From positions 5,165-69,164 of the IMG/VR virus record IMGVR_UViG_3300037464_000007: 64,000 nt of DNA; one strand, 5' to 3'. Every line of letters begins with the position of its first letter. Positions within the stretch are counted from its first letter, which is position 1. A program made the translations under genes and the position numbers. A model generated the notes under the pieces. That model was not told the DNA's origin, searched no databases, and worked only from the letters and a program-made list of their open reading frames with translations. This DNA is from a virus. Below are positions 38,741 to 64,000 of this stretch, in pieces.

Positions 38741-41700
38741 ATGACAACTGCATTGATAAAAAAAACTAATAATAAATCTTTCTCCAGTCTCAGTACAAAA
38801 TATGTTGAAAACTTTGTTACTAGAGTAGAAAGTAAGTTATATGACTTCAATAAGACTTTCCTTACTCCTTATAAGAAGAAGTTAGATGAGTTAGATAAAT
38901 CAGTAATATCAGATATAGAAAAGAACTTATCTTCTCCTGCTTTATTAGTAAAGAATCAGTTAGATGAGTTATGGAACTATCACTGGATGTTAGGTCAAAA
39001 AGATGTCTTAAGTAGTAATAAGAAGACAAGTAAGGGAACTAATTACTCTAGTAACCCTATTAATTTCATTACCTTTACTACTCAGGAGGATTTAGCAGTT
39101 AAAGGTATATGGAATGCAAAAGTAGAGAAAGCAATACTTAAAGACTACGACAGACGTGTAATAAGACTCCAAAGAGATTTAAATAAGGCAACTAATGTAG
39201 ATAAGAAGGCTATATCTGCTCAACTACAGGACATTAGCAGAGAATTAGAGCAGTTCTTAGGTAAGATACAAAACAGACAGCAGACAGCTACTACTAAACA
39301 GTTTGCAACTATAGGAGTAAGAGTAAGAGATTTACAAGAAACAGTGCGAGTAATGGAACTAAAGTTATCTGAAGGTACAAGCTCTATTAGTTCCCCTACT
39401 GATATTGATATCCTTAACTCATCTCAATTCGGTACTATATATCAGGATAAGAGGACTTTGCTATTAGGTCAATCTTATGCATCTGACTATAAAAAAGGTA
39501 TTATCTCTAGTATTAAGAAGTATTTTGCTAACAATGAAGGTACAAGACCTAAGACTAGAGAACGTGACTTATTTACTCAGCTTACTAAGAATACATCTAC
39601 TAATGTAAGTAAAGAAGAGATTACTAAAGTAAAAGCTTTAACAAATAGTAGAGATAGATTATCTAATAAGGATAGGTTAGCAGCTCAAGCAGTACAAGAG
39701 TTTATTAGTTCTATTAGTAATGGTAGAAGTCTTACAGATAAGAAGATAAGACAGTTTATTAAAAGGGATAAGTCTGCTAGTAGTATTAATAAACTAATGT
39801 CTGCTACTCAAGGAACTATTTATGAAGATAATACTACTAGATTAGTAGATGAGATGAGAAATATAGGCACTAATGAAGGTAGTTACTCTACTAATATTAA
39901 ACTGTTACTACAAGAGATAAAGAATAGAGAAAAGTACCCATTAGGGGATAATGTAGAGAGAGTATTTGATACTAGAAGCAATAGTTATAGAAGTATAGAG
40001 GAACTAGAGACATCTATTAGTAACATCTTCGGTATTCAGAGAATTAAGAGAATAGCTGAAACAGAGATATCTTTAGCATATAACTTGGGTCGTCTTAAGA
40101 AGTTACAACAATTAGGTTATAGGAAAGTAAGAATAAGTAATGAAGCCGAGAACAACAGTAATAGACAACAAGCTCTTAATACATATGGAAGTTTAGCTAA
40201 AGCATATAGGTCAGATAATAATGAACGTTACCTACCTATGTTGTGTACTTATTGCCTTACTAAGAATAATCAAGTAATGGACATCAGCACTATTTATAAA
40301 GGTAAAGTAAATACTAAGTATGAAGTAGAGGGTAAATACTCTTCTCTACCTCCTTTTCATGTATCTTGTTGGTGTTACTTTGTTGGAGTAGAAGAGAGTA
40401 AAAGAGATAGTGAAGGTAGTTTAGTAAGTGAACTAGCAGAAGGTATCAAGAACTCAGTAGTAGCAGATAGTCTCAGCAACCAAACTACTTCTAATGCTTT
40501 CTATAATGATCCTTTCATAAAGAAGTTAGTTATAGCTGGAGCAGGGTTGCTTAGTGTAGGAGCTGCTTATTATGCTTATACTAGGTTGGCTAGAAATAAA
40601 GTTCAGATACCTCTTAATTTAAGACCTAAAACAAGTAAGGTTAGTCAGCAAATTAGTAATATACCTCAAGAGATTCAAGAAGCGTCACTTAAGAACTTTG
40701 TGGATAACTTAGATACAACAGCAATGGTAGAAGTAGCAGAAGTAGCAAATAAACTACCTAAAGCTTTTAGGATTGCTAGTAGTGCAGATAATCTAATAAG
40801 TACAGTAGATAATCAACTATCTCAGGAAGTCTATACATTAACTAATAATACTCAATCTACTCTTAATGAACTAATAGCAGATAACCCCGACTATTTAAGT
40901 GTATTAAACTCGTTACTAACATCTAAGAAGTCTTATGAAGGTATAAGAGATAGAATTTTACAGAATAAGTTAAAAGGTCAAGACTTAGATGAGATATATC
41001 AGACTTATTTAGATAACAAACAAGAATATGAAGCTCAGTTAAGTAGATATCTACAAGCAACTAAGGGTAAGAGGTCTAACCTAGTTGACTTAAGTTCTAA
41101 TCTTAATGTAAGTGCTAGAGAAGTGATATTAGATAATAGAAGTAACTTACCTAAAGGAGCTAGTTTACAAAGTGCATTAGATAGCCTCAAGAGCCGGAAG
41201 TTAGTAGATAGTAGTAACCGTCAGCTTAGAAGTATTGAGAAGAACTTAAATAAAGAGATAAGTAATATAAGTGATTTGCAATCTAGAGAAAGTAGGTTAA
41301 TAGATACTAGATTGGGAGGTAGAGATAGTAGAGCAAGAGCTGAACAACTAAAGAACCTTAAACCTAAGTTACCTTCTACTAGCTTATCTACTAAGAATTT
41401 AGATACAGTAGTTAGTAACGTTAATCGAATTAAGAGAGACTTAAATGATAACCGTCTAAATTTAGAAACTATCAGGAGTATTAGTAAGAAACGTTTAGAT
41501 AGTTCTAGTGTTGCAGATAGAGCTTTACTAATAGATACTCAGAAGCAGTATTACAGGCAAATATTAACTGAGAAAGAACGAGTAGTTAGTCAACTTAAAA
41601 CCATGACTAATGTAGATAGCTTAGAAAATTTTAGTAAGTTATATAGGTCAGAGATAAGTAATAAAGCTAAGACAGGATATCAATATAGCAGTGGATTGTG

Positions 41701-41950
41701 GAGAGAAGCAAATATTACTAAGTTAGATTCTACTTATAAGGAGGTTAGCAACATTCTTACTGTAAAGAAGTCTTATGAATCGTATTTATCTGAGTTAGAC
41801 GATATGTTGGAAAAGATGAATAACTTTGAGTCTATTATCAGTTCTAATATTCAGTTCTCCAGTATAGGAGATAGTGATGATATAAACTTAAGAATAGAGA
41901 AGTTACGCAGAATTCCTAGAGTTGGATGTTTAAAAATGTATGGAAGATAA
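38741..41950 (+). CDS. MuF/SPP1 gp7-type head morphogenesis protein with long insertions and C-terminal extension
   Basis: RIKRIAETEISLAYNLGRL..CTYC..LPPFHVSCWC. Confidence 0.8.
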   Translation: MTTALIKKTNNKSFSSLSTKYVENFVTRVESKLYDFNKTFLTPYKKKLDELDKSVISDIEKNLSSPALLVKNQLDELWNYHWMLGQKDVLSSNKKTSKGTNYSSNPINFITFTTQEDLAVKGIWNAKVEKAILKDYDRRVIRLQRDLNKATNVDKKAISAQLQDISRELEQFLGKIQNRQQTATTKQFATIGVRVRDLQETVRVMELKLSEGTSSISSPTDIDILNSSQFGTIYQDKRTLLLGQSYASDYKKGIISSIKKYFANNEGTRPKTRERDLFTQLTKNTSTNVSKEEITKVKALTNSRDRLSNKDRLAAQAVQEFISSISNGRSLTDKKIRQFIKRDKSASSINKLMSATQGTIYEDNTTRLVDEMRNIGTNEGSYSTNIKLLLQEIKNREKYPLGDNVERVFDTRSNSYRSIEELETSISNIFGIQRIKRIAETEISLAYNLGRLKKLQQLGYRKVRISNEAENNSNRQQALNTYGSLAKAYRSDNNERYLPMLCTYCLTKNNQVMDISTIYKGKVNTKYEVEGKYSSLPPFHVSCWCYFVGVEESKRDSEGSLVSELAEGIKNSVVADSLSNQTTSNAFYNDPFIKKLVIAGAGLLSVGAAYYAYTRLARNKVQIPLNLRPKTSKVSQQISNIPQEIQEASLKNFVDNLDTTAMVEVAEVANKLPKAFRIASSADNLISTVDNQLSQEVYTLTNNTQSTLNELIADNPDYLSVLNSLLTSKKSYEGIRDRILQNKLKGQDLDEIYQTYLDNKQEYEAQLSRYLQATKGKRSNLVDLSSNLNVSAREVILDNRSNLPKGASLQSALDSLKSRKLVDSSNRQLRSIEKNLNKEISNISDLQSRESRLIDTRLGGRDSRARAEQLKNLKPKLPSTSLSTKNLDTVVSNVNRIKRDLNDNRLNLETIRSISKKRLDSSSVADRALLIDTQKQYYRQILTEKERVVSQLKTMTNVDSLENFSKLYRSEISNKAKTGYQYSSGLWREANITKLDSTYKEVSNILTVKKSYESYLSELDDMLEKMNNFESIISSNIQFSSIGDSDDINLRIEKLRRIPRVGCLKMYGR

Positions 41951-48261: not shown

Positions 48262-48714
48262 ATGAGAGAATATATCCTTCACAAAACTTTTAGAGATAAA
48301 ACAGGTAACTTTTATTGGGCTAGAACAACTCCATATCCAGAAGGAGAACTACCTGATTATATTACTAAAGACCCAACTAAAGTATCTATTATCGAAACGG
48401 ATACTCATATTGCGGAATCTGTTTTAATCAATCCTGTTCAAGAAGTAAGAAACTTAACACCTGCTGTAGAACATTTAGTACCTTTAACTCCTCAATTTGT
48501 AGAAGCTAATCCAGTTATTACTACTAGAATAGATATTAATACTGCCTCTATTGAGGATATTAAAAATATTAAAGGAATAGCTGAAAAAACTGCAACATTA
48601 ATTGTTACTAGCCGACCTTATGAAAGTATGGCTGATTTAACTACTAGAGTTAAGCCCCCTTTAGGTAAAACTTGGGCAGATTTTCCTTTTAAATATGGGT
48701 CAACTGAAGAGTAA
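48262..48714 (+). CDS. ComEA-like helix-hairpin-helix DNA-binding protein
   Basis: RIDINTASIEDIKNIKGIAEKTATLIVTSRPYESMADL. Confidence 0.75.
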   Translation: MREYILHKTFRDKTGNFYWARTTPYPEGELPDYITKDPTKVSIIETDTHIAESVLINPVQEVRNLTPAVEHLVPLTPQFVEANPVITTRIDINTASIEDIKNIKGIAEKTATLIVTSRPYESMADLTTRVKPPLGKTWADFPFKYGSTEE

Positions 48715-49207: not shown

Positions 49208-49605
49208 GCATTAAAGTATCTACTTATCGAGAATGGAAAGATAATCCTCTTTCAGGTTCTATTGTTCCAAGGTCAGACGATTTACCTTTAGGAGTTACCT
49301 TAGAATCTACTGACAATCCTTCATTACTAGGAGTTGGGGTATCCGTTAACTTTACTGTCTTTACTAACACTTCTACTACTAATTTTAGTGTTGGAAATTA
49401 CGGGACTAACAGCGGTTTATCTCCTATAGTTACTGAACCTAATAAAATAATCTTTAAAGGTTTAGTAGAAAAAGAAACAATTCAGTCAAAGTTAGACTCA
49501 AAACTAGACTCATCTATTTACTACGTTGTTAAAGGAACTTTTCCAGATACAGCAGAAGTTACGTTAGATGAAGGTTATTTCACAAGTAAAGTTACATTAA
49601 TATGA
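49204..49605 (+). CDS. putative virion protein (BppU/Ig-like)
   Basis: C-terminal YYVVKGTF..LDEGYFT. Confidence 0.5.
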   Translation: MSIKVSTYREWKDNPLSGSIVPRSDDLPLGVTLESTDNPSLLGVGVSVNFTVFTNTSTTNFSVGNYGTNSGLSPIVTEPNKIIFKGLVEKETIQSKLDSKLDSSIYYVVKGTFPDTAEVTLDEGYFTSKVTLI

Positions 49606-50012
49606 GAATTATTAAGTTTATAGGGTCTACTAACTCTTCTTATGCAAGAGGAAAAGATAAAAAGAAACGAAAAAATCGAGGTTTATTAACTACAGGAGCT
49701 TTAACTCTTACCGGAGGAGCTGTTGGAAGTAGACTGGCTCAAACAGGCATAATAACAAAGAAAATGAAGAAAAATTTTCTTAAAGGAGCAGGTAGAAAAA
49801 TGAAACTCTCTGAGAAAATAATGAGCCATGTTATAGCAAATAACGTAGTTAACACTACCCATAATAGTAGTAATGCTCCTAAAAAAATAGTAAAGCTATT
49901 TAATAAAGCTAAATTACGTGGAGGAATTAAAGGATCTGCTATTGGAGCAGGAGTAGGTTTAGGTGGAACATTGTTAGTAAATAAATTAAAAAACAGAAAG
50001 AAGGATAAATAA
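49602..50012 (+). CDS. basic Gly-zipper putative virion protein
   Basis: MRIIKFIGS..YARGKDKKKRK tag and two GxxxG-rich helices. Confidence 0.7.
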   Translation: MRIIKFIGSTNSSYARGKDKKKRKNRGLLTTGALTLTGGAVGSRLAQTGIITKKMKKNFLKGAGRKMKLSEKIMSHVIANNVVNTTHNSSNAPKKIVKLFNKAKLRGGIKGSAIGAGVGLGGTLLVNKLKNRKKDK

Positions 50013-50016
50013 CACT

Positions 50017-50781
50017 ATGACTAAGCTAAAAATTATCAATCGAACTCCGTTAAAAAGCCGTCCTATTCCTTTTATTGAATTGCAACCGAAATATCTTTAT
50101 TGGTTAGATACTGGTAGAGAAATAGAAGTTGAAATTTTAAAAGAGAAAGACGCTCATTATGAAGTTAAGTTAGCTACTAATTTTCCTGATAGTCCAGTAG
50201 GAATTAGAACTTGGTTTATTTATAATGAACACGTTGAAGTAATAGAAGATAAGAAAAAGAAATCTACTAAGAATGTATTGAAAACTGATTATTACTACCA
50301 AATAGATAACCATTATCATCCTTATACTTCTTGCTTTTTGACTTGTGTAGCTATGTTACTATCTTTTTATAAGATTAAAGTAACTCCTGACCAACTATAT
50401 AACAAGTGTTTAGATTTAGGTTATGATAGGTTTTCTTGGCAAGATATTACTGCAATACTTAAGAGCTACGGAATCAAACATTACTCTACTACTTCTGGTA
50501 CTGCTCAAGAGTTAAAAGATGCTGTAACTAAAGCTCCTGTAATTTTAGGGACTTACTTAACTGAAGCTAGCCATATTGTTTTAGTAGTGGGATTTGATGA
50601 TTCTGCTTATGATGGTAGAGGTGCATTTGTAGTTAATGACCCTTATGGTGAATTTACTCATAACGGCTACATCCACACTCCAACAGCAGGGAAAGAGACT
50701 TTATATTCCTATTCTCTAATTGCTCAAGTTGGCGCACCTGAAGGTGATGGAAATTATTGGTTACATTTACCGGAGAATTAA
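50017..50781 (+). CDS. endolysin, peptidase C39-like
   Basis: SH3-like N-terminus; YYYQIDN..SCFLTCVAM (Cys), SHIVLVVGFD (His), VNDPYG. Confidence 0.8.
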   Translation: MTKLKIINRTPLKSRPIPFIELQPKYLYWLDTGREIEVEILKEKDAHYEVKLATNFPDSPVGIRTWFIYNEHVEVIEDKKKKSTKNVLKTDYYYQIDNHYHPYTSCFLTCVAMLLSFYKIKVTPDQLYNKCLDLGYDRFSWQDITAILKSYGIKHYSTTSGTAQELKDAVTKAPVILGTYLTEASHIVLVVGFDDSAYDGRGAFVVNDPYGEFTHNGYIHTPTAGKETLYSYSLIAQVGAPEGDGNYWLHLPEN

Positions 50782-50784
50782 ATT

Positions 50785-51057
50785 ATGGAAACTAAAATGA
50801 GACGCTCTCTTTACTTAACAAAAACATTTCTATTTTCAGTAGTGCTTTATCTATCCGTAGTTTATCAACCTCTTGTTAATTACATTTATGAGGGTCAGAT
50901 GAGCAAAGATGATTTTACTGCTTTACTTGTAGGAACATTTGGTTTTCTAGGAGTAAGTGGAAGTCGAGCAAGAGTTAATGACGATATTAGAGCTAGTGCA
51001 AGAGAAGGAGTACCCGTTGGATTAGTAGGGACGGGTATTCCCAACAATAAAGTATAA
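50785..51057 (+). CDS. probable holin
   Basis: 90 aa, two hydrophobic segments, directly after the endolysin. Confidence 0.6.
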   Translation: METKMRRSLYLTKTFLFSVVLYLSVVYQPLVNYIYEGQMSKDDFTALLVGTFGFLGVSGSRARVNDDIRASAREGVPVGLVGTGIPNNKV

Positions 51058-51064
51058 AAATGAG

Positions 51065-52624
51065 ATGGTTGTATTTAGTGTATTATTTGAGAAAATTGAG
51101 GATGAGTATTATTACCGATATATAAGTGATAGTATTACGTATTACCTCCCTAGCTACCGTACTGATAGATTAGACAAACCTATTAGTAGCTTTATTAATG
51201 CTCAAGGGCCAATTTATGCTGAGTCAGTTTATAAGTTCTTAAATAAAGCTTTTGAGACTGGTGAACATATTGAAGATTTTACGGTTAAAGACCCAAGAAG
51301 TGAAAAAGAGATATCGTTAACTCTCTTTGGTTATAAATATCTCAATTTCATTATCCTAGTTGGTAGTCAAAAATCAGATAGTTTATTAGAAAACACTTTA
51401 TTTAAAGAGAATTACCTATTTCTTATTCAATGGGCTAACTCAAAAGAATGTGTTCCTGAAGATATATCTGATAATTTAGCCGGACTTCTTGAATATACAA
51501 AGCAGGAGATATTAGCTAAACCGTATATTTCTTTAATTCATTCTGATGATGTTAGTTCTTTTAAATCTGAGCTGCTTACTTATTTAGATAAAGGTACTGC
51601 ATCTTTCTATCAGAAATATAGATTAGTTACTAAGTCGAGTAAGGATATAACTGTTCTTGACCATACTTGCAGAATTCTAAGAGAAAACGCTGTTGTTACT
51701 ATTAGCTATTTAAGAGATATTACTAAAGATGAGTTAATGTCTAGTAGGTTAGCTGAGTTAGCTTTATTAGACGAAGAAAACTTTAATACTAGCTTACTTA
51801 TAAAAATCGAATGGGATAGAAACTTCAACATTTCTCGATGGAATCAACAAGCTAGAGAGCTATTAGGTTGGGATAACTCTATTATTGGTAAAAATATTAG
51901 AGATATAAGTCTTCTTAATTCTGAAGATGCAATTGCAATGCAAGGACAGCTTAAGAGGTTACTTAACCATGAAGTAGAATTAGTAGTTAGCAATTATAAA
52001 ATCTGCAAAAAAGACGGCAGTCACTTAGATACTAAATGGTCTAACAAGCTTGCTATAAGAGACGGGGATTTAAGAGTTTTATCTTCAATTATTGATAGAA
52101 GTGAAGAAGCGTTATTAGCTACTAAATTAATAGAGATGGAGGAAAGGTCAGACTTACTGCTCAAGACTCTTTACTCTACTAATACCAACTTTAACAATGA
52201 CGTATTTAGAAAACTTGTAGATACTCCTTTAACTTCTAGCTCTGAAGGATTGATTAAAGCTGAGATAATTATTAGAAAGATAGAAGAAGAGTTAAAAAGA
52301 CTTAATGATACTATTTTTCACAATAATGGTAACAATCTTTTAAGTGAAGTAGCTAATCTCAAATATGAAGTTAAAGATATTAGAGAAGATGTTAGTAGAA
52401 TTAAGGAGAGTCAGTCTAAGCTATCTACTGAGTTAAGCGATTTATTAAATATTAATATACTTAGTTTAGGTAAGAATCTTAACTTCAAGAACTTAACAGG
52501 GTTACTTGTAGTTAGTTATGTAATATTCGGGTTAGTGTTTCCGGGTCTTTACCATAATTTAGCTAAACCTTATCTTATCCAATACTATAAAGAATTAAAA
52601 CAAATAGAAGGGAAAAAGGATTAA
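51065..52624 (+). CDS. multi-PAS sensor protein with coiled coil and C-terminal TM, no output domain
   Basis: PAS/PAC signatures: ISDNLAGLLEYTKQEIL..LIHSDD..YRLVTKS..RDIT and EWDRNFNISRWNQQARELLGW..CKKDGS..W.N..D; C-terminal LTGLLVVSYVIFGLVF. Confidence 0.85.
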   Translation: MVVFSVLFEKIEDEYYYRYISDSITYYLPSYRTDRLDKPISSFINAQGPIYAESVYKFLNKAFETGEHIEDFTVKDPRSEKEISLTLFGYKYLNFIILVGSQKSDSLLENTLFKENYLFLIQWANSKECVPEDISDNLAGLLEYTKQEILAKPYISLIHSDDVSSFKSELLTYLDKGTASFYQKYRLVTKSSKDITVLDHTCRILRENAVVTISYLRDITKDELMSSRLAELALLDEENFNTSLLIKIEWDRNFNISRWNQQARELLGWDNSIIGKNIRDISLLNSEDAIAMQGQLKRLLNHEVELVVSNYKICKKDGSHLDTKWSNKLAIRDGDLRVLSSIIDRSEEALLATKLIEMEERSDLLLKTLYSTNTNFNNDVFRKLVDTPLTSSSEGLIKAEIIIRKIEEELKRLNDTIFHNNGNNLLSEVANLKYEVKDIREDVSRIKESQSKLSTELSDLLNINILSLGKNLNFKNLTGLLVVSYVIFGLVFPGLYHNLAKPYLIQYYKELKQIEGKKD

Positions 52625-52626
52625 CT

Positions 52627-52977
52627 ATGTGGCGACCATTTGACAATCCAGCTAAAAGACGAAAAAGATTTATAGAAAAAAACAGTCCTTACCTTGTACC
52701 TTTAGCGGTTGGAGGACTAGCAGCTATGGGAGATGAAAATGCTTCTACTAGACAACGACTTAAAAGAGGTTTAGTTACTGGGGGACAAACTTTTGCAGCT
52801 ATGAAGACAGCAGGAGTATTTGCTAATAATAAGAGCAAAAAGAACTACTACCAAAATACAATTTTACCAACGGTTCAACAAGCTAGAGGAATAGCTAATA
52901 CAGGAATCAATCTACAAAAGAATATGAGAGCTGCTACTAAATTTGACTTCTGGAAAAAGAAGAAAGGATTAATTTAA
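52627..52977 (+). CDS. basic amphipathic putative virion protein
   Basis: LVPLAVGGLAAMG, GLVTGGQTFAAM, Lys-rich ends. Confidence 0.6.
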   Translation: MWRPFDNPAKRRKRFIEKNSPYLVPLAVGGLAAMGDENASTRQRLKRGLVTGGQTFAAMKTAGVFANNKSKKNYYQNTILPTVQQARGIANTGINLQKNMRAATKFDFWKKKKGLI

Positions 52978-53570
52978 TGTATAAATACTGCACAGTAGAA
53001 AAGATTCAAAGAAGGTTGGGTAGACGAGCTAATATATTTACTGAGTCACTAATACCCTCAGATAATGTATCTGTTATATCTTCTAATCTAGATGTAGAGT
53101 TAGTACATGAACTAATAGAAGCAAATGAAGCTCTTATAGATACTTATTTTAGAATGCTGTATGTTCTACCAATACATCTTTTAGATATCCCTCTAATAGA
53201 GCCTATAGTAGTCGGATTTGTTATTAACGATTTGATGATGTCCTTATATGACCAAGGGATGATAGCTTCATTAGGAGGTGATGGAGGTTTAGGTTCTACT
53301 ATATATCAAAAAGCTAAAGAGTTACTTAAGAGTTACTTTATTGGTACTAATATCTACATTCCAGGTGTATCTGCTCCAGAAGATAATGCAATGCAAAATG
53401 CTTCTAGATTAATTCTCCCTAATACTCTAGAGTTAGGATATAAAAGAACTTCTGCTACTCAAAACTTTACTGTTATTGGAGATTATAAACGGAATAAAAA
53501 TAATTTAGGTTTGGATTTTGGGGAAGATAGAAAATATAGAGGTGTTGAAATCTCTTGGGGAACTTATTAA
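52977..53570 (+). CDS. head-tail adaptor (Mu gp36/DUF1320-like)
   Basis: YCTVEKIQRRLG..LIEANEALIDTYFR.LY.LP..YQKAKELLK. Confidence 0.7.
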   Translation: MYKYCTVEKIQRRLGRRANIFTESLIPSDNVSVISSNLDVELVHELIEANEALIDTYFRMLYVLPIHLLDIPLIEPIVVGFVINDLMMSLYDQGMIASLGGDGGLGSTIYQKAKELLKSYFIGTNIYIPGVSAPEDNAMQNASRLILPNTLELGYKRTSATQNFTVIGDYKRNKNNLGLDFGEDRKYRGVEISWGTY

Positions 53571-53590
53571 TTAATAGAAAAACAAAAACT

Positions 53591-54469
53591 ATGTTGTACG
53601 ACATTACGTTTGCTAATCAAAATCAATTTACTAATTTCGGGAGAGGTAAAGATAAGACTAAAAGAAAAAGTAGAGTTTCTGTTGCTGCTGGAGCTGGTTT
53701 AGGTACTGTAGCAGGAGGCCCAGTTGGAACTATCGCTGGGGGATTAATAGCTCGTGGAATTAATAAAGAAAAAGATAGATATGAAAAACAAGGCCCAAGA
53801 AGTCATTTAGGTAAGATTGGTCACGATGCTAAATTAGGAGCTAAATCAGTAGGTATAGGTAGTGCTATTACTGCTGGATTGGCTGGAGCAGCTTTAGGCT
53901 CTAGATTACCAACTGTTAAAAAGAAAGGATTTTTAGGATTAGGAAGAGATAAGAAAGCAGAAGCTAAACAGAAACTCAAAAATACTCTTATGGGAGCAGG
54001 TTTAGGTATTCTTGGAGGTGGAGTTAGTGGTGCTGTTTCTGGAGCAGGTAACGGAGCTTTAGTAGGTGCTGGTAGAGGATTTCTTCAAGAAAATAAAACT
54101 AAGAAAAAGAAAGGTAAGTTTTCTAATTCTACTAAACTTGCTGAATTTGCTTTGAGTCTTCCTCCTAAAAAGCAGAAACAAAGAAGTAGATTGGGGATGG
54201 TTGGTCACGATACTAAAAAAGGAGCTAAGATTGGGGCGGGTTTAGGAGCAGCTTATTTAGGAAGTGTAGGTGTTAGAGCAGGGATGAAACAACCTGGTAG
54301 CCTAAAATCTAAAATAGCAGGTGCTGTTTTAGGTGCAGGGATAGGTACTCTTGCGGGGAGTGCAGGTGGAGCAATTCAAGGTGCTAAAACAGGCCTTGGT
54401 GTTGGAGTAGTTCGGTCTTTAGTAACCCCAAGAAAAAAGAAGTCTTTATTTGATAGATTTAAAAAATGA
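53591..54469 (+). CDS. basic Gly-zipper putative virion protein, two repeated modules (start moved to MLYDITF)
   Basis: ITFANQNQFTNFGRGKDKTKRKSR; RSHLGKIGHDAK and RSRLGMVGHDTK repeats; C-terminal KKKSLFDRFKK. Confidence 0.75.
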   Translation: MLYDITFANQNQFTNFGRGKDKTKRKSRVSVAAGAGLGTVAGGPVGTIAGGLIARGINKEKDRYEKQGPRSHLGKIGHDAKLGAKSVGIGSAITAGLAGAALGSRLPTVKKKGFLGLGRDKKAEAKQKLKNTLMGAGLGILGGGVSGAVSGAGNGALVGAGRGFLQENKTKKKKGKFSNSTKLAEFALSLPPKKQKQRSRLGMVGHDTKKGAKIGAGLGAAYLGSVGVRAGMKQPGSLKSKIAGAVLGAGIGTLAGSAGGAIQGAKTGLGVGVVRSLVTPRKKKSLFDRFKK

Positions 54470-54473
54470 TGCT

Positions 54474-55316
54474 ATGAGAAAGATTATTTTTATGGGACAG
54501 CAAGAAACTATTAACTTTACTAAATCCACTAAGAAAAGAGATATAAAAAATGGTATCGCTAATCTAGCAGCTACAGCTTATTTAGGTCAGCAAACTATTC
54601 GCTCAGGTGTTCCGAGATTACTAGGTGTTAGGTTAGAGTCACATAGTACAAGTAAAAAAAATGCTAAAGAAATTCTTAAAAACGGTGGTATTTTAGACCC
54701 AAATTATGGAGGTACAGGAGCAAGTAAAGCTCTAAATGATAAACATTACATTAATCAATCTAAAAACTATGTACATCTTACAGGGAGACATAAAGATGAT
54801 ATTGGAAAAACTACTCTACTAAAAGACCTTATTCATAGAAAACGTCAGAGAGCTATGTATCGAGGGCTTCCAGGTGAAGATATAAACACTAAAGATGTTG
54901 GTAAAATTGCACGTAATCTATTAAAAGGGTTAACGGGAGTTAAAGGTAAGACTTTGTATCTTGGGGGAAGTGATAATTATTTTAATAAGAATTTTATTTC
55001 TGACCCTAGTGATATAGCTCTTAAAACATCTAATAAAGTTCGTGTACATGGAAATAGAACAACTGCAACTCTAGAGGCTTTAAAAAGAGAAGGTAATGGG
55101 GATAGGTTAAAAGGTATATCTAAATTAGTAAAAGCTAACCCAAAAAGAGCTTTAGCAGGAGTGGCTATTCTTACTGTTGGCACCGGACTAACCTCTATAA
55201 GTGCAAAAGATACTTACAACAGTTTTAACGGCAAAGTCAAAGGACATACTAGAAAGAATAAATCTGGTAAATGGTCAAATGTTAAATCATTTATAAGAGA
55301 TAAAATAAAGAAATGA
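54474..55316 (+). CDS. putative virion protein carrying a KptA/Tpt1-like ADP-ribosyltransferase-fold domain (start moved to MRKIIF)
   Basis: SHSTSKKNAKEILKNGGILDP..YVHLT resembles KptA HGT..ILK.GL.P..YVHLS; flanked by hydrophobic helices. Confidence 0.55.
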   Translation: MRKIIFMGQQETINFTKSTKKRDIKNGIANLAATAYLGQQTIRSGVPRLLGVRLESHSTSKKNAKEILKNGGILDPNYGGTGASKALNDKHYINQSKNYVHLTGRHKDDIGKTTLLKDLIHRKRQRAMYRGLPGEDINTKDVGKIARNLLKGLTGVKGKTLYLGGSDNYFNKNFISDPSDIALKTSNKVRVHGNRTTATLEALKREGNGDRLKGISKLVKANPKRALAGVAILTVGTGLTSISAKDTYNSFNGKVKGHTRKNKSGKWSNVKSFIRDKIKK

Positions 55317-55822
55317 GAGAAATAATATTTGTTAATTCTACTAATATTAACTTTGGTAGAGGTAAGGACAAGACTAAAAGAAAAAGTAGAATTGGTTTAG
55401 CTTCTTCTATTGCTACTGGAGCAACTATAGGAGCTAGTAAATATGGAGCTTTAGGTGCTTTATCTGGAGCAGGTAATCTTGCTGGTATTGGAATAGGAAT
55501 AGACAAAGATATTGATAAAGAAAAGACTAGATTTAAAAAGTCTGGTTCAAGGTCTAGATTAGGTAAAGTTGCTAACGATGCAAAAAGTGGAGCTAGAAAT
55601 GTAGGTGGAGCAACAGCTAGTCTAGGACTTATAAATACAGTTCTAAAAACTAAAGGTAAGCTCAAAGACCGAGCTATTAAAGGAATTGGTAAAGGCTTAG
55701 TTTGGGGAGCTAAAGGTGCATTAGCAGGTGGATTAGCTGGTTCTAGTGTAGGTACTACAAGAGGTTTAGTTCAACCTAATAAAAAGAAAAGTCTATTACA
55801 GAGGCTAAAAGATAAGAAATGA
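55313..55822 (+). CDS. basic Gly-zipper putative virion protein
   Basis: MREIIFVNSTNINFGRGKDKTKRKSR; RSRLGKVANDAK; KKKSLLQRLK. Confidence 0.75.
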   Translation: MREIIFVNSTNINFGRGKDKTKRKSRIGLASSIATGATIGASKYGALGALSGAGNLAGIGIGIDKDIDKEKTRFKKSGSRSRLGKVANDAKSGARNVGGATASLGLINTVLKTKGKLKDRAIKGIGKGLVWGAKGALAGGLAGSSVGTTRGLVQPNKKKSLLQRLKDKK

Positions 55823-56310
55823 GAAAGATAAATTTTATAGGCTCTACTAGCTCAAATTATCTATTTGGTAAACCTAAAAAACCTTCTCGATTAAAAAGTG
55901 CAGGTATTGGAGCTGGAGTTGGTGTAGCTGCTGGTTATAATGCAGGTGGAATTCCCGGTGCAGTAATGGGGGGACTTAGAGGTGCTACTGATAGTTTTGT
56001 TAGAAAGAACGGTTACAACTCTCTACTTACAAGAGCTAAAAGATATGCTCCTACTTCTTTTGCAGGTAAAGTGACTAATGATGCTAAAACTATTGGAACT
56101 CTTTCTGCTGCTGGAGGTGGATTAACTGGAGCTGTTAGAGGAGGACTCAAAGGATTAAAAGGTGGTTGGAAAGGTGCTTTAGGAGGAGCAGTTGGTCAAG
56201 GAGCTAGAAGTGCATTCGGAGCTACTAAAAAAGGAGCTGCTGTAGGTGCAGGAATTGGTGGACTGAGAGGATTGAAGAGAAAGAAAAACTACTTACTACC
56301 TACTTCTTAA
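55819..56310 (+). CDS. basic Gly-zipper putative virion protein
   Basis: MRKINFIGS..YLFGKPKK; FAGKVTNDAK; GxxxG arrays. Confidence 0.75.
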   Translation: MRKINFIGSTSSNYLFGKPKKPSRLKSAGIGAGVGVAAGYNAGGIPGAVMGGLRGATDSFVRKNGYNSLLTRAKRYAPTSFAGKVTNDAKTIGTLSAAGGGLTGAVRGGLKGLKGGWKGALGGAVGQGARSAFGATKKGAAVGAGIGGLRGLKRKKNYLLPTS

Positions 56311-62981: not shown

Positions 62982-64000
62982 ATGGATACTGCAAGCAATA
63001 TTAAGTTTAACGTTGAGGGAGACGATAAGTTTACTCAATTTTTAGAAAAAACTCAAAAATCATTTAAAGAGCTTAACGAGAAATCTCTTAAATTTTTTAA
63101 TGCGGGTTTGAGAGACGGTACTAAAAATCTAAAAGATATTACTAAGCAGTTTCAAAACAAGAGAAATATAGTAGATAGTTTAGTTAAAGATTACGGTAAA
63201 GCTACTGTTGCTACTACTGACTGGAATGCTTCGATGGGTAAGCTAGTTAAAACTACTTCTTTACTTGGAGGAGCGTTAAACGCATTAAATATAGCTTCTA
63301 TTGGGACAGGTATCGTTAAAACTGTTGGAACTGGAGTTACTGAAATACTAAATGCAGTAACTATGACTAGCACAGGTATCAACGCTATGGCTGCTTCTGG
63401 TTTTGATGGAACTCCTTTAATGAATTCTTTAGGAGAAATTACTGCTGTCTTAACTGGAAATACTCAAGCAATAGAAGCTTTTTCTGCTAGATCTACTGCT
63501 GCATTTAACCAATTTGAACAAAAACTCAATGAAGTTAATATTGTATTTGGATTATCTCAAGAAAGACTATCTGAATACGGAGAGGCTTTACAAAATGGTT
63601 TAGAGAAGAATTTAAAGAATAGTGTAGGTTCTCTTACGGCTCTTAATGCTGCCTATCAAGCTGCTAGCGCTGGATTTACTGAATTTCAACAAAATCAAGA
63701 TGTAGTTAACTTGGCAATTAAAGCTAATAAAGCTGCTCCGGGAAGTGACTTATTCCAGATTGGTGGAGCTATTGGTAAAGGAGCGGGGATTCTAGAAACT
63801 AAAGATATTGCAGAATTAGAAGAAGTTACTGCTAAATGGTTAGCTACTGAACAACTAGGTCTAACAACTGTAGGAGATATGACTGAGTATATCAGTGATA
63901 TGTACTCATCTCTTAAAAACGCAGGTATTGGTACTAAAGATTTAGTTAACGAGACTCAAGGTTTAGTAGTTGCTTTTACTAAATTAGGTGGCAAAGTAAC
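62982..64000 (+). CDS. tape measure protein, TP901 family (5' partial, runs off the window)
   Basis: MDTASNIKFNVEG..AAFNQFEQKLNEV..AAYQAASAG..AEL..V.AKW..T.QLGLTTV; open to 64000. Confidence 0.85.
   Translation, partial: MDTASNIKFNVEGDDKFTQFLEKTQKSFKELNEKSLKFFNAGLRDGTKNLKDITKQFQNKRNIVDSLVKDYGKATVATTDWNASMGKLVKTTSLLGGALNALNIASIGTGIVKTVGTGVTEILNAVTMTSTGINAMAASGFDGTPLMNSLGEITAVLTGNTQAIEAFSARSTAAFNQFEQKLNEVNIVFGLSQERLSEYGEALQNGLEKNLKNSVGSLTALNAAYQAASAGFTEFQQNQDVVNLAIKANKAAPGSDLFQIGGAIGKGAGILETKDIAELEEVTAKWLATEQLGLTTVGDMTEYISDMYSSLKNAGIGTKDLVNETQGLVVAFTKLGGKV

Follow-up and report, generated by a model that had tools for sequence, protein, structure and literature searches.

The moment at which a holin triggers is generally taken to depend mostly on its concentration and on the energisation of the membrane, and the known modifiers of this timing are holin isoforms and superinfection sensors such as T4 RI. 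The antiholins S107 of lambda, a dual-start product, and RI and RIII of T4 bind the holin and set the timing of lysis, with superinfection serving as the cue for RI. RI is a periplasmic sensor, RIII is small and soluble and S107 is a holin isoform, and none of the three carries a PAS domain or a tail anchor. A different layout is found in the XhlA-type proteins of the Bacillus prophage PBSX (xhlA-xhlB-xlyA) and of SPP1-like phages, which are encoded beside the holin and endolysin and consist of an N-terminal coiled coil and a single C-terminal transmembrane (TM) segment. These proteins are ~90 residues long, have no sensor domain and come from phages of Gram-positive hosts.

The Mu releasin gp25 (DUF2730) is reported to be membrane-tethered and cytoplasm-facing, to be encoded with the lysis genes and to control endolysin timing (Chamblee et al. 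2022, PMC9239132). The gp25 protein has an N-terminal TM segment and no PAS domain, and belongs to a holin-less phage with a SAR endolysin. VqmA_Phage of vibriophage VP882 is a phage PAS receptor that sets the moment of host lysis in response to a small-molecule cue (PMC8284805); it is a soluble transcription factor with PAS and HTH domains that acts on the lysogeny-lysis switch. Tandem PAS modules occur in FixL, DosP, MmoS and PpsR (PDB 8js5, 9cmf, 3ewk, 4hh2), and these sensors end in a kinase, GGDEF/EAL or HTH output.

The locus described here was identified in a 64,000-nucleotide stretch of viral DNA (the window). Its source is probably a cyanophage, an uncultured ~150-kb phage of soil biocrusts. 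Three genes lie in a row on the + strand, to which all coordinates below refer: gene 1 (50017–50781, 254 residues), encoding a C39_2 peptidase, gene 2 (50785–51057, 90 residues), encoding a small holin-like membrane protein, and gene 3 (51065–52624, 519 residues), encoding a PAS protein. The ORF coordinates confirmed the gaps of 3 nt (gene 1/gene 2) and 7 nt (gene 2/gene 3) that the initial annotation had given.

On the published description, gp25 sets a precedent for the control of lysis by a cytoplasmic protein that is anchored in the membrane, but the TM segment of gene 3 is C-terminal and a holin-like gene adjoins it. Membership of the Mu releasin family was rejected: gene 3 had no DUF2730 match at E ≤ 1 and carries its TM segment at the C-terminus, and the N-terminus of the peptidase lacks a hydrophobic segment. 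Unlike VqmA_Phage, gene 3 is membrane-anchored, has no HTH match at E ≤ 1, and lies in a late structural operon where it adjoins the holin and endolysin genes. Gene 3 shares the XhlA layout and the holin/endolysin neighbourhood with no detectable homology, and it matched none of the known holin, antiholin, XhlA or releasin families. The dual start of gene 2 is lambda-like; no sequence relation of S107, RI or RIII to this cassette was found. A search of the literature returned no account of a lysis cassette that includes a PAS protein.

A peptidase gene and a holin-like gene in the late operon

The trio sits between head and neck genes, with the major capsid protein on one side and a Mu gp36-like adaptor on the other, and the capsid-to-adaptor region also contains an HhH DNA-binding protein and variable Gly-rich basic paralogues. 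The gene order of this late operon is collinear across the clade and all of its genes are tightly spaced. Searches of the operon for internal promoter and terminator signals found none above chance, and no PADLOC defence model was matched.

The protein encoded by gene 1, a putative endolysin, has an all-beta N-terminal domain (residues ~1–80) followed by a papain-like cysteine peptidase domain of the Peptidase_C39_2 family (residues 89–210). It matched the Pfam profile of that family with an E of 1.5e-17 and 64.9 bits (cut-off 24), and the PHROG family phrog_10051, annotated as endolysin, with an E of 2.3e-18. The catalytic set (Q95, C106, H186 and D208) is invariant in 10 relatives, indicating that it is intact, and hydropathy analysis revealed no TM, SAR or signal segment at the N-terminus. 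The tblastn searches identified homologues of gene 1 in cyanophages only. Neither structural approach was informative: the AF2 model had a mean pLDDT of 47, too poor for a fold search, and a PDB profile search with the C39 family gave no match.

C39_2 domains have been counted among the catalytic domains of endolysins (PMC5017753), and C39_2 was the sole recognisable cell-wall-hydrolase-type domain within the window. It was also the only family present among ten cell-wall-hydrolase families tested in three large relatives, one of which is a 151-kb genome bounded by terminal repeats; no Phage_lysozyme, Amidase_2, Amidase_3, SLT, M23, M15_4, NlpC/P60, GH25 or CHAP domain was identified in the three. 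As the complete relative contained no other endolysin candidate, the gene 1 peptidase would be needed for exit.

Gene 2 encodes a putative class II-like holin with a strong TM1 (residues ~12–28, Kyte-Doolittle 1.64), a second, weaker Gly-rich segment (residues ~44–59) and a charged C-terminal tail, which was conserved as R-x-R-V-N-[ED]-D-I in an alignment of 15 homologues. Its two in-frame ATGs, at 50785 and 50797, constitute a dual start, and the corresponding motif, M-x-x-(x)-M-[KR]-R, was kept in all 14 of the loci where it was found. The protein thus shows the hallmarks of a holin, being small, with at least one TM segment and a charged C-terminus, and encoded 3 nt after the peptidase gene; it had no match among the Pfam and PHROG holin families.

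A C39 gene paired with a small TM gene directly downstream of it also occurs in isolation, with no PAS gene, in two unrelated phages, the Microcoleus phage My-WqHQDG and a contig (L032) in which the pair is next to an integrase. The PAS gene is therefore not an obligatory part of the cassette. The similarity between gene 2 and the small protein of My-WqHQDG (BLASTP E 3.3, hhalign probability 26%) did not show homology. Based on these recurring pairs, and on C39_2 being the sole hydrolase family of those tested in the relatives, the putative roles of gene 1 as an endolysin and gene 2 as a holin are reasonably to moderately supported.

Domain anatomy of the PAS protein

Three PAS families were tested against gene 3 (PF08447, PF00989 and PF13426), and the Pfam profiles scored 47.2 bits for PAS_3 (cut-off 25.6), 31.3 for PAS (22.6) and 30.6 for PAS_9 (27). 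These matches fell in two stretches, residues 134–206 and 252–324, and the same families were identified in 33 of 33 gene 3 homologues. The first domain, PAS-A (PAS_3 type; residues 113–222, 51401–51730), ends in an R-D-I-T junction motif, and the second, PAS-B (residues 236–345, 51770–52099), ends in an I-D-x-S-x-E junction. In each case the junction motif (R-D-I-T or I-D-x-S) is followed by a helix, as in signalling PAS arrays.

Superposition of the AF2 model agreed with these assignments. Residues 114–222 aligned with HIF-2a/ARNT PAS-B over 101 residues (Z 14.8, rmsd 1.8 Å), and residues 224–345 had a Z of ~14 (14.1 versus 2r78). In both sequence and fold PAS-A was nearest to PER, ARNT and HIF-type PAS domains. 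The PAS-helix-PAS-helix arrangement of gene 3 is the same as that of FixL, DosP, MmoS and PpsR: residues 116–363 of the model aligned with the FixL tandem PAS, comparisons with such modules covered 214–243 residues (Z 14.4–14.7), and PpsR aligned with gene 3 over 375–380 columns. Whereas those sensors continue into an output domain, gene 3 continues into a conserved helical hairpin and finishes with its tail anchor.

We identified no flavin or heme cofactor motif in gene 3. The D199-H200-x-C202 motif of PAS-A is invariant and lies on the H-beta strand, with C202 being the only invariant cysteine of the protein, and the near-invariant H159 is part of the general PAS_3 “HPDD” motif. Comparison with heme-PAS domains of the FixL and DosP type showed similarity of fold only, with H200 and C202 on H-beta, and the heme or FAD ligand residues of tandem-PAS sensors could not be assigned in gene 3. 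A LOV photoreceptor was rejected, as there was no NCRFL or C[RK]FL motif and C202 is on H-beta and not on E-alpha.

The region downstream of PAS-B forms a helical module (residues 346–465, 52100–52459) with an invariant P-L-T motif and two helices (residues 393–419 and 426–461) separated by an Asn-rich turn. Both helices had a heptad a/d pattern beyond that of shuffled sequences (p ≤ 0.001). This module, presumed to be an output or interaction module, is the most conserved part of gene 3, with a mean distance of 0.305 versus 0.48 for the TM segment, and it was also found in two distant homologues (P0050 and P0051), in which the number of PAS domains is one or two. Searches of PDB sequences with the C-terminal module returned generic coiled coils only (Borealin, paramyxovirus phosphoprotein and NEMO), and a single-sequence PDB search with residues 1–350 gave no match. 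In the ESM Atlas the module had no usable match and the whole protein led to generic PAS clusters only.

Gene 3 terminates in a TM segment and tail (residues 477–519, 52493–52624) composed of the single hydrophobic span of the protein (residues ~477–497, maximum Kyte-Doolittle 2.12), a 22-residue tail and the stop codon. The TM segment and tail are the fastest-evolving part of the protein, which is consistent with a plain membrane anchor. With this single C-terminal TM segment and no signal peptide, the bulk of gene 3 is predicted to be cytoplasmic and held at the membrane.

A sensor histidine kinase was rejected as an identity for gene 3, as there was no HisKA or HATPase family match at E ≤ 1 and no H-box-like motif; His419, which falls within the helical turn, varies and is replaced by Tyr in most homologues. 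No GGDEF, EAL or HTH family was matched at E ≤ 1. Gene 3 is a genuine output-less, tail-anchored PAS protein. The initial annotation had anticipated most of this anatomy. Its two clear PAS/PAC domains were both above the Pfam cut-offs in the HMM domain scan, with an agreeing fold; the absence of an output domain (H-box, HATPase, GGDEF, EAL or NCRFL) was borne out by the Pfam scan and motif search, and the coiled coil followed by one C-terminal TM segment by the heptad test and hydropathy. It had also proposed a probable degenerate PAS domain at the N-terminus (residues 1–112, 51065–51400), which is not established: the PAS-like topology, in the order beta-beta-alpha-beta-beta-beta, appeared only in a moderate-confidence AF2 model (pLDDT 50–79), and hhalign gave a probability of at most 1% against PAS-A and PAS-B.

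Conservation and relatives

The order g133, C39 peptidase, small protein, PAS protein and gp36-like adaptor was kept in 15 of 15 related phage contigs, among them the 151-kb genome bounded by terminal repeats, down to 50% PAS identity, and in every one of the 15 gene 3 directly followed the holin-like gene. On contig L017 the PAS homologue was followed, 9 nt later, by a small multi-TM ORF. The two distant homologues, P0050 and P0051, are on short contigs with no visible lysis gene, and the neighbours of P0051 encode a methylase, an HTH protein and a PD-(D/E)XK nuclease. Neither had relatives in the genome_contigs or viral_contigs sets, and P0051 was a singleton among 5.8 billion proteins. Searches of 50,697 isolated-phage records by tblastn, with the PAS protein, the PAS region and P0050, found nothing significant; the sole match was a weak PAS-like one (E 0.2–0.3) in a 735-kb uncultured phage.

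Several comparisons addressed gene 2 and gene 3 jointly. In two contigs (L007 and L008) the gene 2 allele has been replaced (53–59% identity) and the PAS anchor is still 87% identical. Gene 2 distances correlated with those of the PAS TM segment with a rho of 0.30, versus 0.65 with those of the capsid protein, and no covariation between gene 3 and gene 2 was detected. Complex prediction for the PAS C-terminal module and the small protein gave a score of 0.00, with a partner pLDDT below 50, an outcome that does not count in favour of binding or in disfavour of it.

The domain anatomy, membrane anchor, conservation pattern and synteny of gene 3 are established by these observations, and parts of the earlier interpretation of the locus stand with them. 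The labels of endolysin and holin are supported by the C39_2 match, the holin hallmarks and the recurring pair, although gene 2 matched no holin family. The linkage to lysis genes held for the trio in the 15 related contigs but was not visible on the short contigs of the two distant homologues. Lysis-type neighbours, an output-less, tail-anchored PAS protein and the conservation of the trio were all found, but not the proposed tie of the PAS protein to lysis: for the idea of a sensor fused to a lysis regulator that could gate lysis timing, nothing but adjacency links the PAS protein to lysis, and the swap of the holin-like allele leaves the PAS anchor unchanged. Adjacency to lysis genes is weak evidence here, as the entire late operon is collinear and tightly packed.

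Possible roles of gene 3

Based on gene order, gene 3 may sense a cue, dimerise, bind a partner and affect lysis. Our main reading is that it acts as a membrane-tethered cytoplasmic sensor modulating holin triggering, to which we assign a probability of roughly one in three (0.35). A more specific proposal, tentative and somewhat doubtful, is a lysis clock with a built-in intracellular sensor: anchored by its tail, the PAS protein would respond to the redox, energy, light or hydration state of the host and control the holin by direct action at the membrane.

Under our main reading the three genes would form a late-expressed lysis cassette. The cysteine-peptidase endolysin of gene 1 would be cytoplasmic and depend on a holin, gene 2 would be that holin, with two TM segments and a dual start like that of lambda, and gene 3 would be a dimeric, cytoplasm-facing protein whose C-terminal tail anchor would lie in the same membrane as the holin. 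The PAS domains would sense an intracellular cue, and the invariant His200 and Cys202 in the PAS-A pocket suggest that it might be redox, heme or a metal. The signal would pass through the DIT-type PAS-helix junctions to the conserved membrane-proximal helical hairpin or coiled coil. We speculate that it is the helical module, and not the TM segment, that makes contact, either with the holin, where the conserved cytoplasmic tail is the most plausible site, or with a different membrane lysis factor; this contact would delay or license hole formation. The timing of lysis would thereby be set by the energy, redox, light or hydration state of the host.

A rather unlikely alternative that nevertheless has several points in its favor is that gene 3 has no connection to lysis and is a decoy or hijacker of host signalling, heterodimerising with or sequestering a host PAS sensor or other factor late in infection. 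It would then be one more accessory gene in a cargo-rich head-neck stretch, where other non-structural-looking genes, those of the HhH protein and the Gly-rich basic paralogues, also lie between the capsid and adaptor genes. The PER, ARNT and HIF-type domains to which PAS-A is nearest work mainly via PAS-PAS contacts, gene 3 has no output domain, any conserved host factor could be the target of its conserved helical module, and the distant homologue P0051 is among DNA-metabolism genes. However, host-takeover functions are unusual in a late operon, no host partner can be named, and gene 3 comes straight after the holin-like gene in each of the 15 contigs, with an anchor beside a membrane lysis protein being the simpler link.

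We consider it improbable that gene 3 is itself a hole-former or an obligate co-holin, in effect an XhlA-like protein with a sensor extension. The confirmed heptad helices and TM segment reproduce the XhlA-type layout of a coiled coil and then one C-terminal TM segment, and a few members had weak, non-significant XhlA, hemolysin or holin profile matches. Among 21 C-terminal modules, however, XhlA (PF10779) was matched by only two, at E values of at least 1.4, and the PHROG “hemolysin” family by four (best E 0.46). In addition, the TM segment is the least conserved part of gene 3 and a separate dual-start holin-like gene is already present.

The trio is flanked by the genes of the major capsid protein and the Mu gp36-like adaptor, and a further reading is that all three products, or the peptidase and the PAS protein at a minimum, belong to the virion or serve in its assembly, for example as an entry peptidase or as ejected or internal proteins. 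In Arthronema virus TR020 the C39 gene likewise lies between the capsid and tail-tube (tail-tubular) genes. Even so, this is very improbable: known virion proteins have neither PAS-helix junctions of the signalling type nor a tail anchor, the C39 and small-protein pairs of My-WqHQDG and L032 are away from structural genes, and the complete relative would be left with no endolysin candidate. An outer-membrane lysis step in a diderm host, with gene 3 substituting for a spanin or disruptin, is scarcely credible, although gene 3 has coiled coils and a TM segment and the gene that follows endolysin and holin often encodes a spanin when the host is Gram-negative. PAS domains that end in DIT junctions are signalling modules of the cytoplasm, and a spanin was rejected on the N-terminus (MVVFSVLFEK), which has no Cys lipobox or TM segment, the only TM segment being at 477–497; with no N-terminal TM segment, signal peptide or lipobox, ~475 residues would stay cytoplasmic.

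The output-less PAS architecture is rare and well conserved, and is of interest to signal-transduction research even if gene 3 is unrelated to lysis; in that case the helical module would still be the most conserved part of this family. If our main reading of a sensor that modulates holin triggering is correct, a holin under the control of a cytoplasmic sensor of ligand or redox state would be a novel means by which a virus times lysis, a post-translational, signal-gated control of the holin that has no described precedent. Engineers would gain from it a compact, modular “sensor to membrane” switch as well. Cyanophage replication depends on light, and biocrusts are active only in short wet pulses. 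A biocrust cyanophage with such a control would burst its host only under favourable conditions, and the PAS protein would provide a testable handle on diel- or hydration-dependent viral lysis in soils.

Genomic setting and the late operon

The 64-kb window is part of an 80.9-kb viral contig, and the three genes considered here, encoding a peptidase (gene 1, 50017-50781, + strand, 254 aa), a small protein (gene 2, 50785-51057, + strand, 90 aa) and a PAS protein (gene 3, 51065-52624, + strand, 519 aa), sit inside a long, densely packed late operon. Listed from the large terminase (36702), this operon continues with a 1069-aa portal-sized ORF (38741-41950), for which neither Pfam nor PHROGs gave a portal match, an acidic scaffold-like protein and the major capsid protein (47094; phrog_29, E 1.6e-34). 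A helix-hairpin-helix protein, two small ORFs and a Gly-rich basic ORF lie, in that order, between the capsid gene and the trio, which is followed directly by another Gly-rich ORF and then by a Mu gp36-like adaptor (52977), further Gly-rich paralogues, a GP4 gp80-like fibre (57250) and a giant ORF. The gaps within the trio measured 3 and 7 nt, exactly as initially annotated. Since few-base gaps are the norm across the entire operon, this spacing itself says little. Promoter-like and terminator-like sites within the trio were not above chance.

Several other genes of the contig drew our attention. The 150-aa protein encoded directly 3' of the capsid gene (48262-48714) has a ComEA-like helix-hairpin-helix (HHH_3) and is kept in relatives. 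The Gly-rich, strongly basic paralogues (49602-50012, 52627-52977, 53555-54469, 55313-55822 and 55819-56310) are interspersed among head and neck genes on both sides of the trio and share an N-terminal motif, F-x-G/N ... G-[KR]-x-K-x-K-R-K; their sole family match was a weak Gly-zipper. Their number and presence differ among relatives, with one related contig (L001) lacking the copy directly upstream of the peptidase gene, and roles as capsid cargo or as membrane-active peptides are conceivable. The giant ORF downstream of the fibre genes (~3,140 aa) runs from 62982-64000 of the window into an adjoining piece of the contig (L034, to 8581; about 68146-77580 in source contig numbering, G000:C1). 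Pfam gave nothing for it, and L001 has a called counterpart of 3,279 aa; in size it is reminiscent of giant proteins packaged in virions, N4 vRNAP for example. The first 36 kb of the window encode a leucine-rich-repeat protein (591-1148, - strand; LRR_4, E 4.6e-21) together with Clp protease, Kyano_Gp96, HU-like DNA-binding, metallophosphoesterase and AAA/STAND-like NTPase domains. Upstream of the window on G000:C1, a 188-aa ORF (L033, 3904-4470, - strand) scored 33.7 bits against the phosphomevalonate kinase family (cut-off 33.8).

A cyanobacterium of soil crusts is a reasonable inference for the host. The nearest relatives of the capsid protein were from Pseudanabaena phages PA-SR01 and Pam2 (28% identity), tblastn found peptidase relatives in cyanophages only (the top match, at 36%, being Microcoleus phage My-WqHQDG), the window has a Kyanoviridae Gp96 domain, and its DNA was found in biocrust and soil metagenomes. 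Related contigs reached 151 kb, one of them with direct terminal repeats.

The peptidase and the small membrane protein

Residues 89-210 of gene 1 matched Peptidase_C39_2 (E 1.5e-17), an accepted class of endolysin catalytic domain (table in PMC5017753), and the protein also matched a PHROG annotated as endolysin. Gln95, Cys106, His186 and Asp208 were invariant across ten relatives. The first ~80 residues, which matched no family, were all-beta in a low-confidence predicted structure. With no hydrophobic segment at the N-terminus, the protein would depend on a holin for export. Neither the window nor the remainder of the contig yielded a further muralytic family. Each of three large relatives, the terminal-repeat-bounded genome among them, had a single C39_2 match and none to Phage_lysozyme, Amidase_2, Amidase_3, SLT, M23, M15_4, NlpC/P60, GH25 or CHAP. 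The assignment of gene 1 as a putative endolysin is thereby reasonably supported. In the cultured cyanopodovirus Arthronema virus TR020 (L019, 2980-3492) a C39_2 gene, preceded by a 51-aa ORF, lies between capsid and tail-tubular genes; this mid-structural position resembles that in the window, and a virion-associated role for gene 1 is therefore still conceivable.

The gene 2 product matched no holin family. Its strong hydrophobic segment (~12-28) is followed by a weaker, Gly-rich one (~44-59) and by a charged tail that is conserved. Two in-frame ATG codons, 3 or 4 codons apart and in most cases with a basic residue between them, were present at each of the 14 loci where we located the motif; such a dual-start arrangement is known from lambdoid holins. 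Pairs of a C39 gene and a small membrane ORF in two unrelated phages give independent support to a peptidase-holin pair: in My-WqHQDG the C39 gene overlaps a 106-aa two-TM ORF, the two standing alone among opposite-strand genes, and in the contig L032 the gene for a C39 protein of 30% identity overlaps a 55-aa membrane ORF that comes after it, adjoining an integrase. We consider gene 2 as a putative holin to be reasonably supported as well. Two closely related contigs carry a divergent gene 2 allele (L007, 1065-1340; L008, 5719-5994; 53-59% identity to that of the window) between peptidase and PAS genes that are 83-93% identical to those of the window, a pattern which indicates allele replacement by recombination at this single small gene.

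Architecture and relatives of the PAS protein

The initial annotation had described gene 3 as a triple-PAS protein. Two of these domains stood, both above the Pfam threshold and modeled by AF2 at pLDDT 76-91 (mean for the protein 66.7): PAS-A (residues 113-222), which superposed on HIF-2a/ARNT PAS-B with Z 14.8 (1.8 A over 101 residues), and PAS-B (236-345), with Z about 14. The tandem also aligned to FixL and MmoS. The third, annotated as probable, was not established: residues 1-112 have a PAS-like order of strands and helices predicted at modest confidence and no profile similarity to PAS-A or PAS-B; we call the protein dual-PAS with an N-terminal domain of no assigned family. Each PAS domain ends in a junction (R217-D218-I219-T220 in PAS-A, I-D344-x-S346-x-E348 in PAS-B) followed by a helix, the same arrangement as in signalling PAS arrays (DIT motif). 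The D199-H200-x-C202 of the PAS-A H-beta strand is invariant, a lead toward heme, metal or redox chemistry and nothing more.

Conservation peaks in a helical module (346-465), where an invariant P-L-T motif accompanies two helices with a heptad pattern, connected by an Asn-rich turn. The protein closes with a single TM (477-497) and a tail of 22 residues. The heptad helices and the TM bear out the coiled coil and C-terminal anchor first annotated. As there is no signal peptide, ~475 residues must face the cytoplasm. The reported lack of an output domain was likewise borne out, with no kinase, cyclase, phosphodiesterase, HTH, LOV or H-box feature found.

Full-length homologues (n=33; 51-95% identity, 513-520 aa) were all metagenomic. 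Among 1.84 billion representatives, a profile built on the C-terminal module picked out only its own family and two weak matches, both of which turned out to share the plan of gene 3. One (P0050, 391 aa; 27% identity over 373 residues) combines the P-L-T motif and helices with two PAS domains and a C-terminal TM, and the other (P0051, 257 aa) has one PAS-like domain and the same helical module; PAS number thus varies, and the helical module with its anchor is the constant element. Both are on short contigs: P0050 has an acidic coiled-coil ORF on one side and, 9 nt downstream, a multi-TM ORF on the other, and P0051 has as neighbours an HTH protein, a methylase and a PD-(D/E)XK nuclease. Among isolated and curated phages, weak PAS-like tblastn matches (E 0.2-0.3), to the window's PAS-B and to P0050, occurred solely at about 36.7-37.2 kb of LR756501.1 / LR756503.1, an unannotated 735-kb uncultured phage.

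A possible role of the PAS protein in lysis

The order 133-aa ORF, C39 peptidase, small protein, PAS protein, (variable Gly-rich ORF) and gp36-like adaptor was the same in 15/15 related contigs examined. The synteny with lysis genes that the initial annotation had left to be checked holds in these contigs, the peptidase and small protein genes directly preceding the PAS gene in every one. All IMG/VR contigs in which a close relative of the peptidase (at least 71% identity) is present at full length also had the PAS gene. This invariant slot directly 3' of the holin-like gene, the shared late operon and a predicted anchor that would place the protein at the holin's site all speak for a role in lysis, as judged from sequence. 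The adjacency is not specific, because the whole module is collinear, and peptidase-holin pairs occur without a PAS gene, as in My-WqHQDG and L032; both points are neutral or count against such a role.

Beside the divergent gene 2, identity to the window stays at 85-97% in L008 (peptidase, capsid protein, and the anchor and helical module of the PAS protein) and at about 92-93% in L007 (peptidase and whole PAS protein). Gene 2 distances tracked those of the capsid protein (correlation 0.65) more closely than those of the PAS TM (0.30). Within gene 3 the TM and tail evolved fastest (0.48) and the helical module slowest (0.305), so a specific contact is likelier through the cytoplasmic helices than through the TM; the conserved cytoplasmic tail of gene 2 is, by inference only, a candidate partner.

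Our tentative reading, to which we assign a probability of about 0.35, is that gene 3 encodes a dimeric, tail-anchored cytoplasmic sensor that modulates holin triggering. The dimer would be held in the membrane by its tail anchor, its PAS domains would sense an intracellular cue, and this cue would be relayed through the DIT-type junctions to the membrane-proximal helical module, which would modulate the triggering of the holin. It is possible, if doubtful, that this protein is instead a decoy of host signalling. A co-holin or hole-former seems improbable, and a virion or assembly protein more improbable still. A substitute spanin is scarcely credible for a protein predicted to be almost entirely cytoplasmic. 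Together these readings leave part of the probability unassigned.

Among the nearest known concepts, XhlA has a coiled coil and a C-terminal TM and is encoded beside a holin. The antiholins lambda S107 and T4 RI/RIII also come close, as do Mu releasin gp25, a membrane-tethered cytoplasmic regulator of lysis (PMC9239132), and VqmA_Phage, a PAS receptor of phage origin that controls the lysis decision transcriptionally (PMC8284805). Gene 3 proved to belong with none of these, and our literature search found no description of a PAS protein within a lysis cassette. The gene 3 family is a new architectural variant among phage PAS proteins, and lysis gated by a sensor through gene 3 is a plausible hypothesis.
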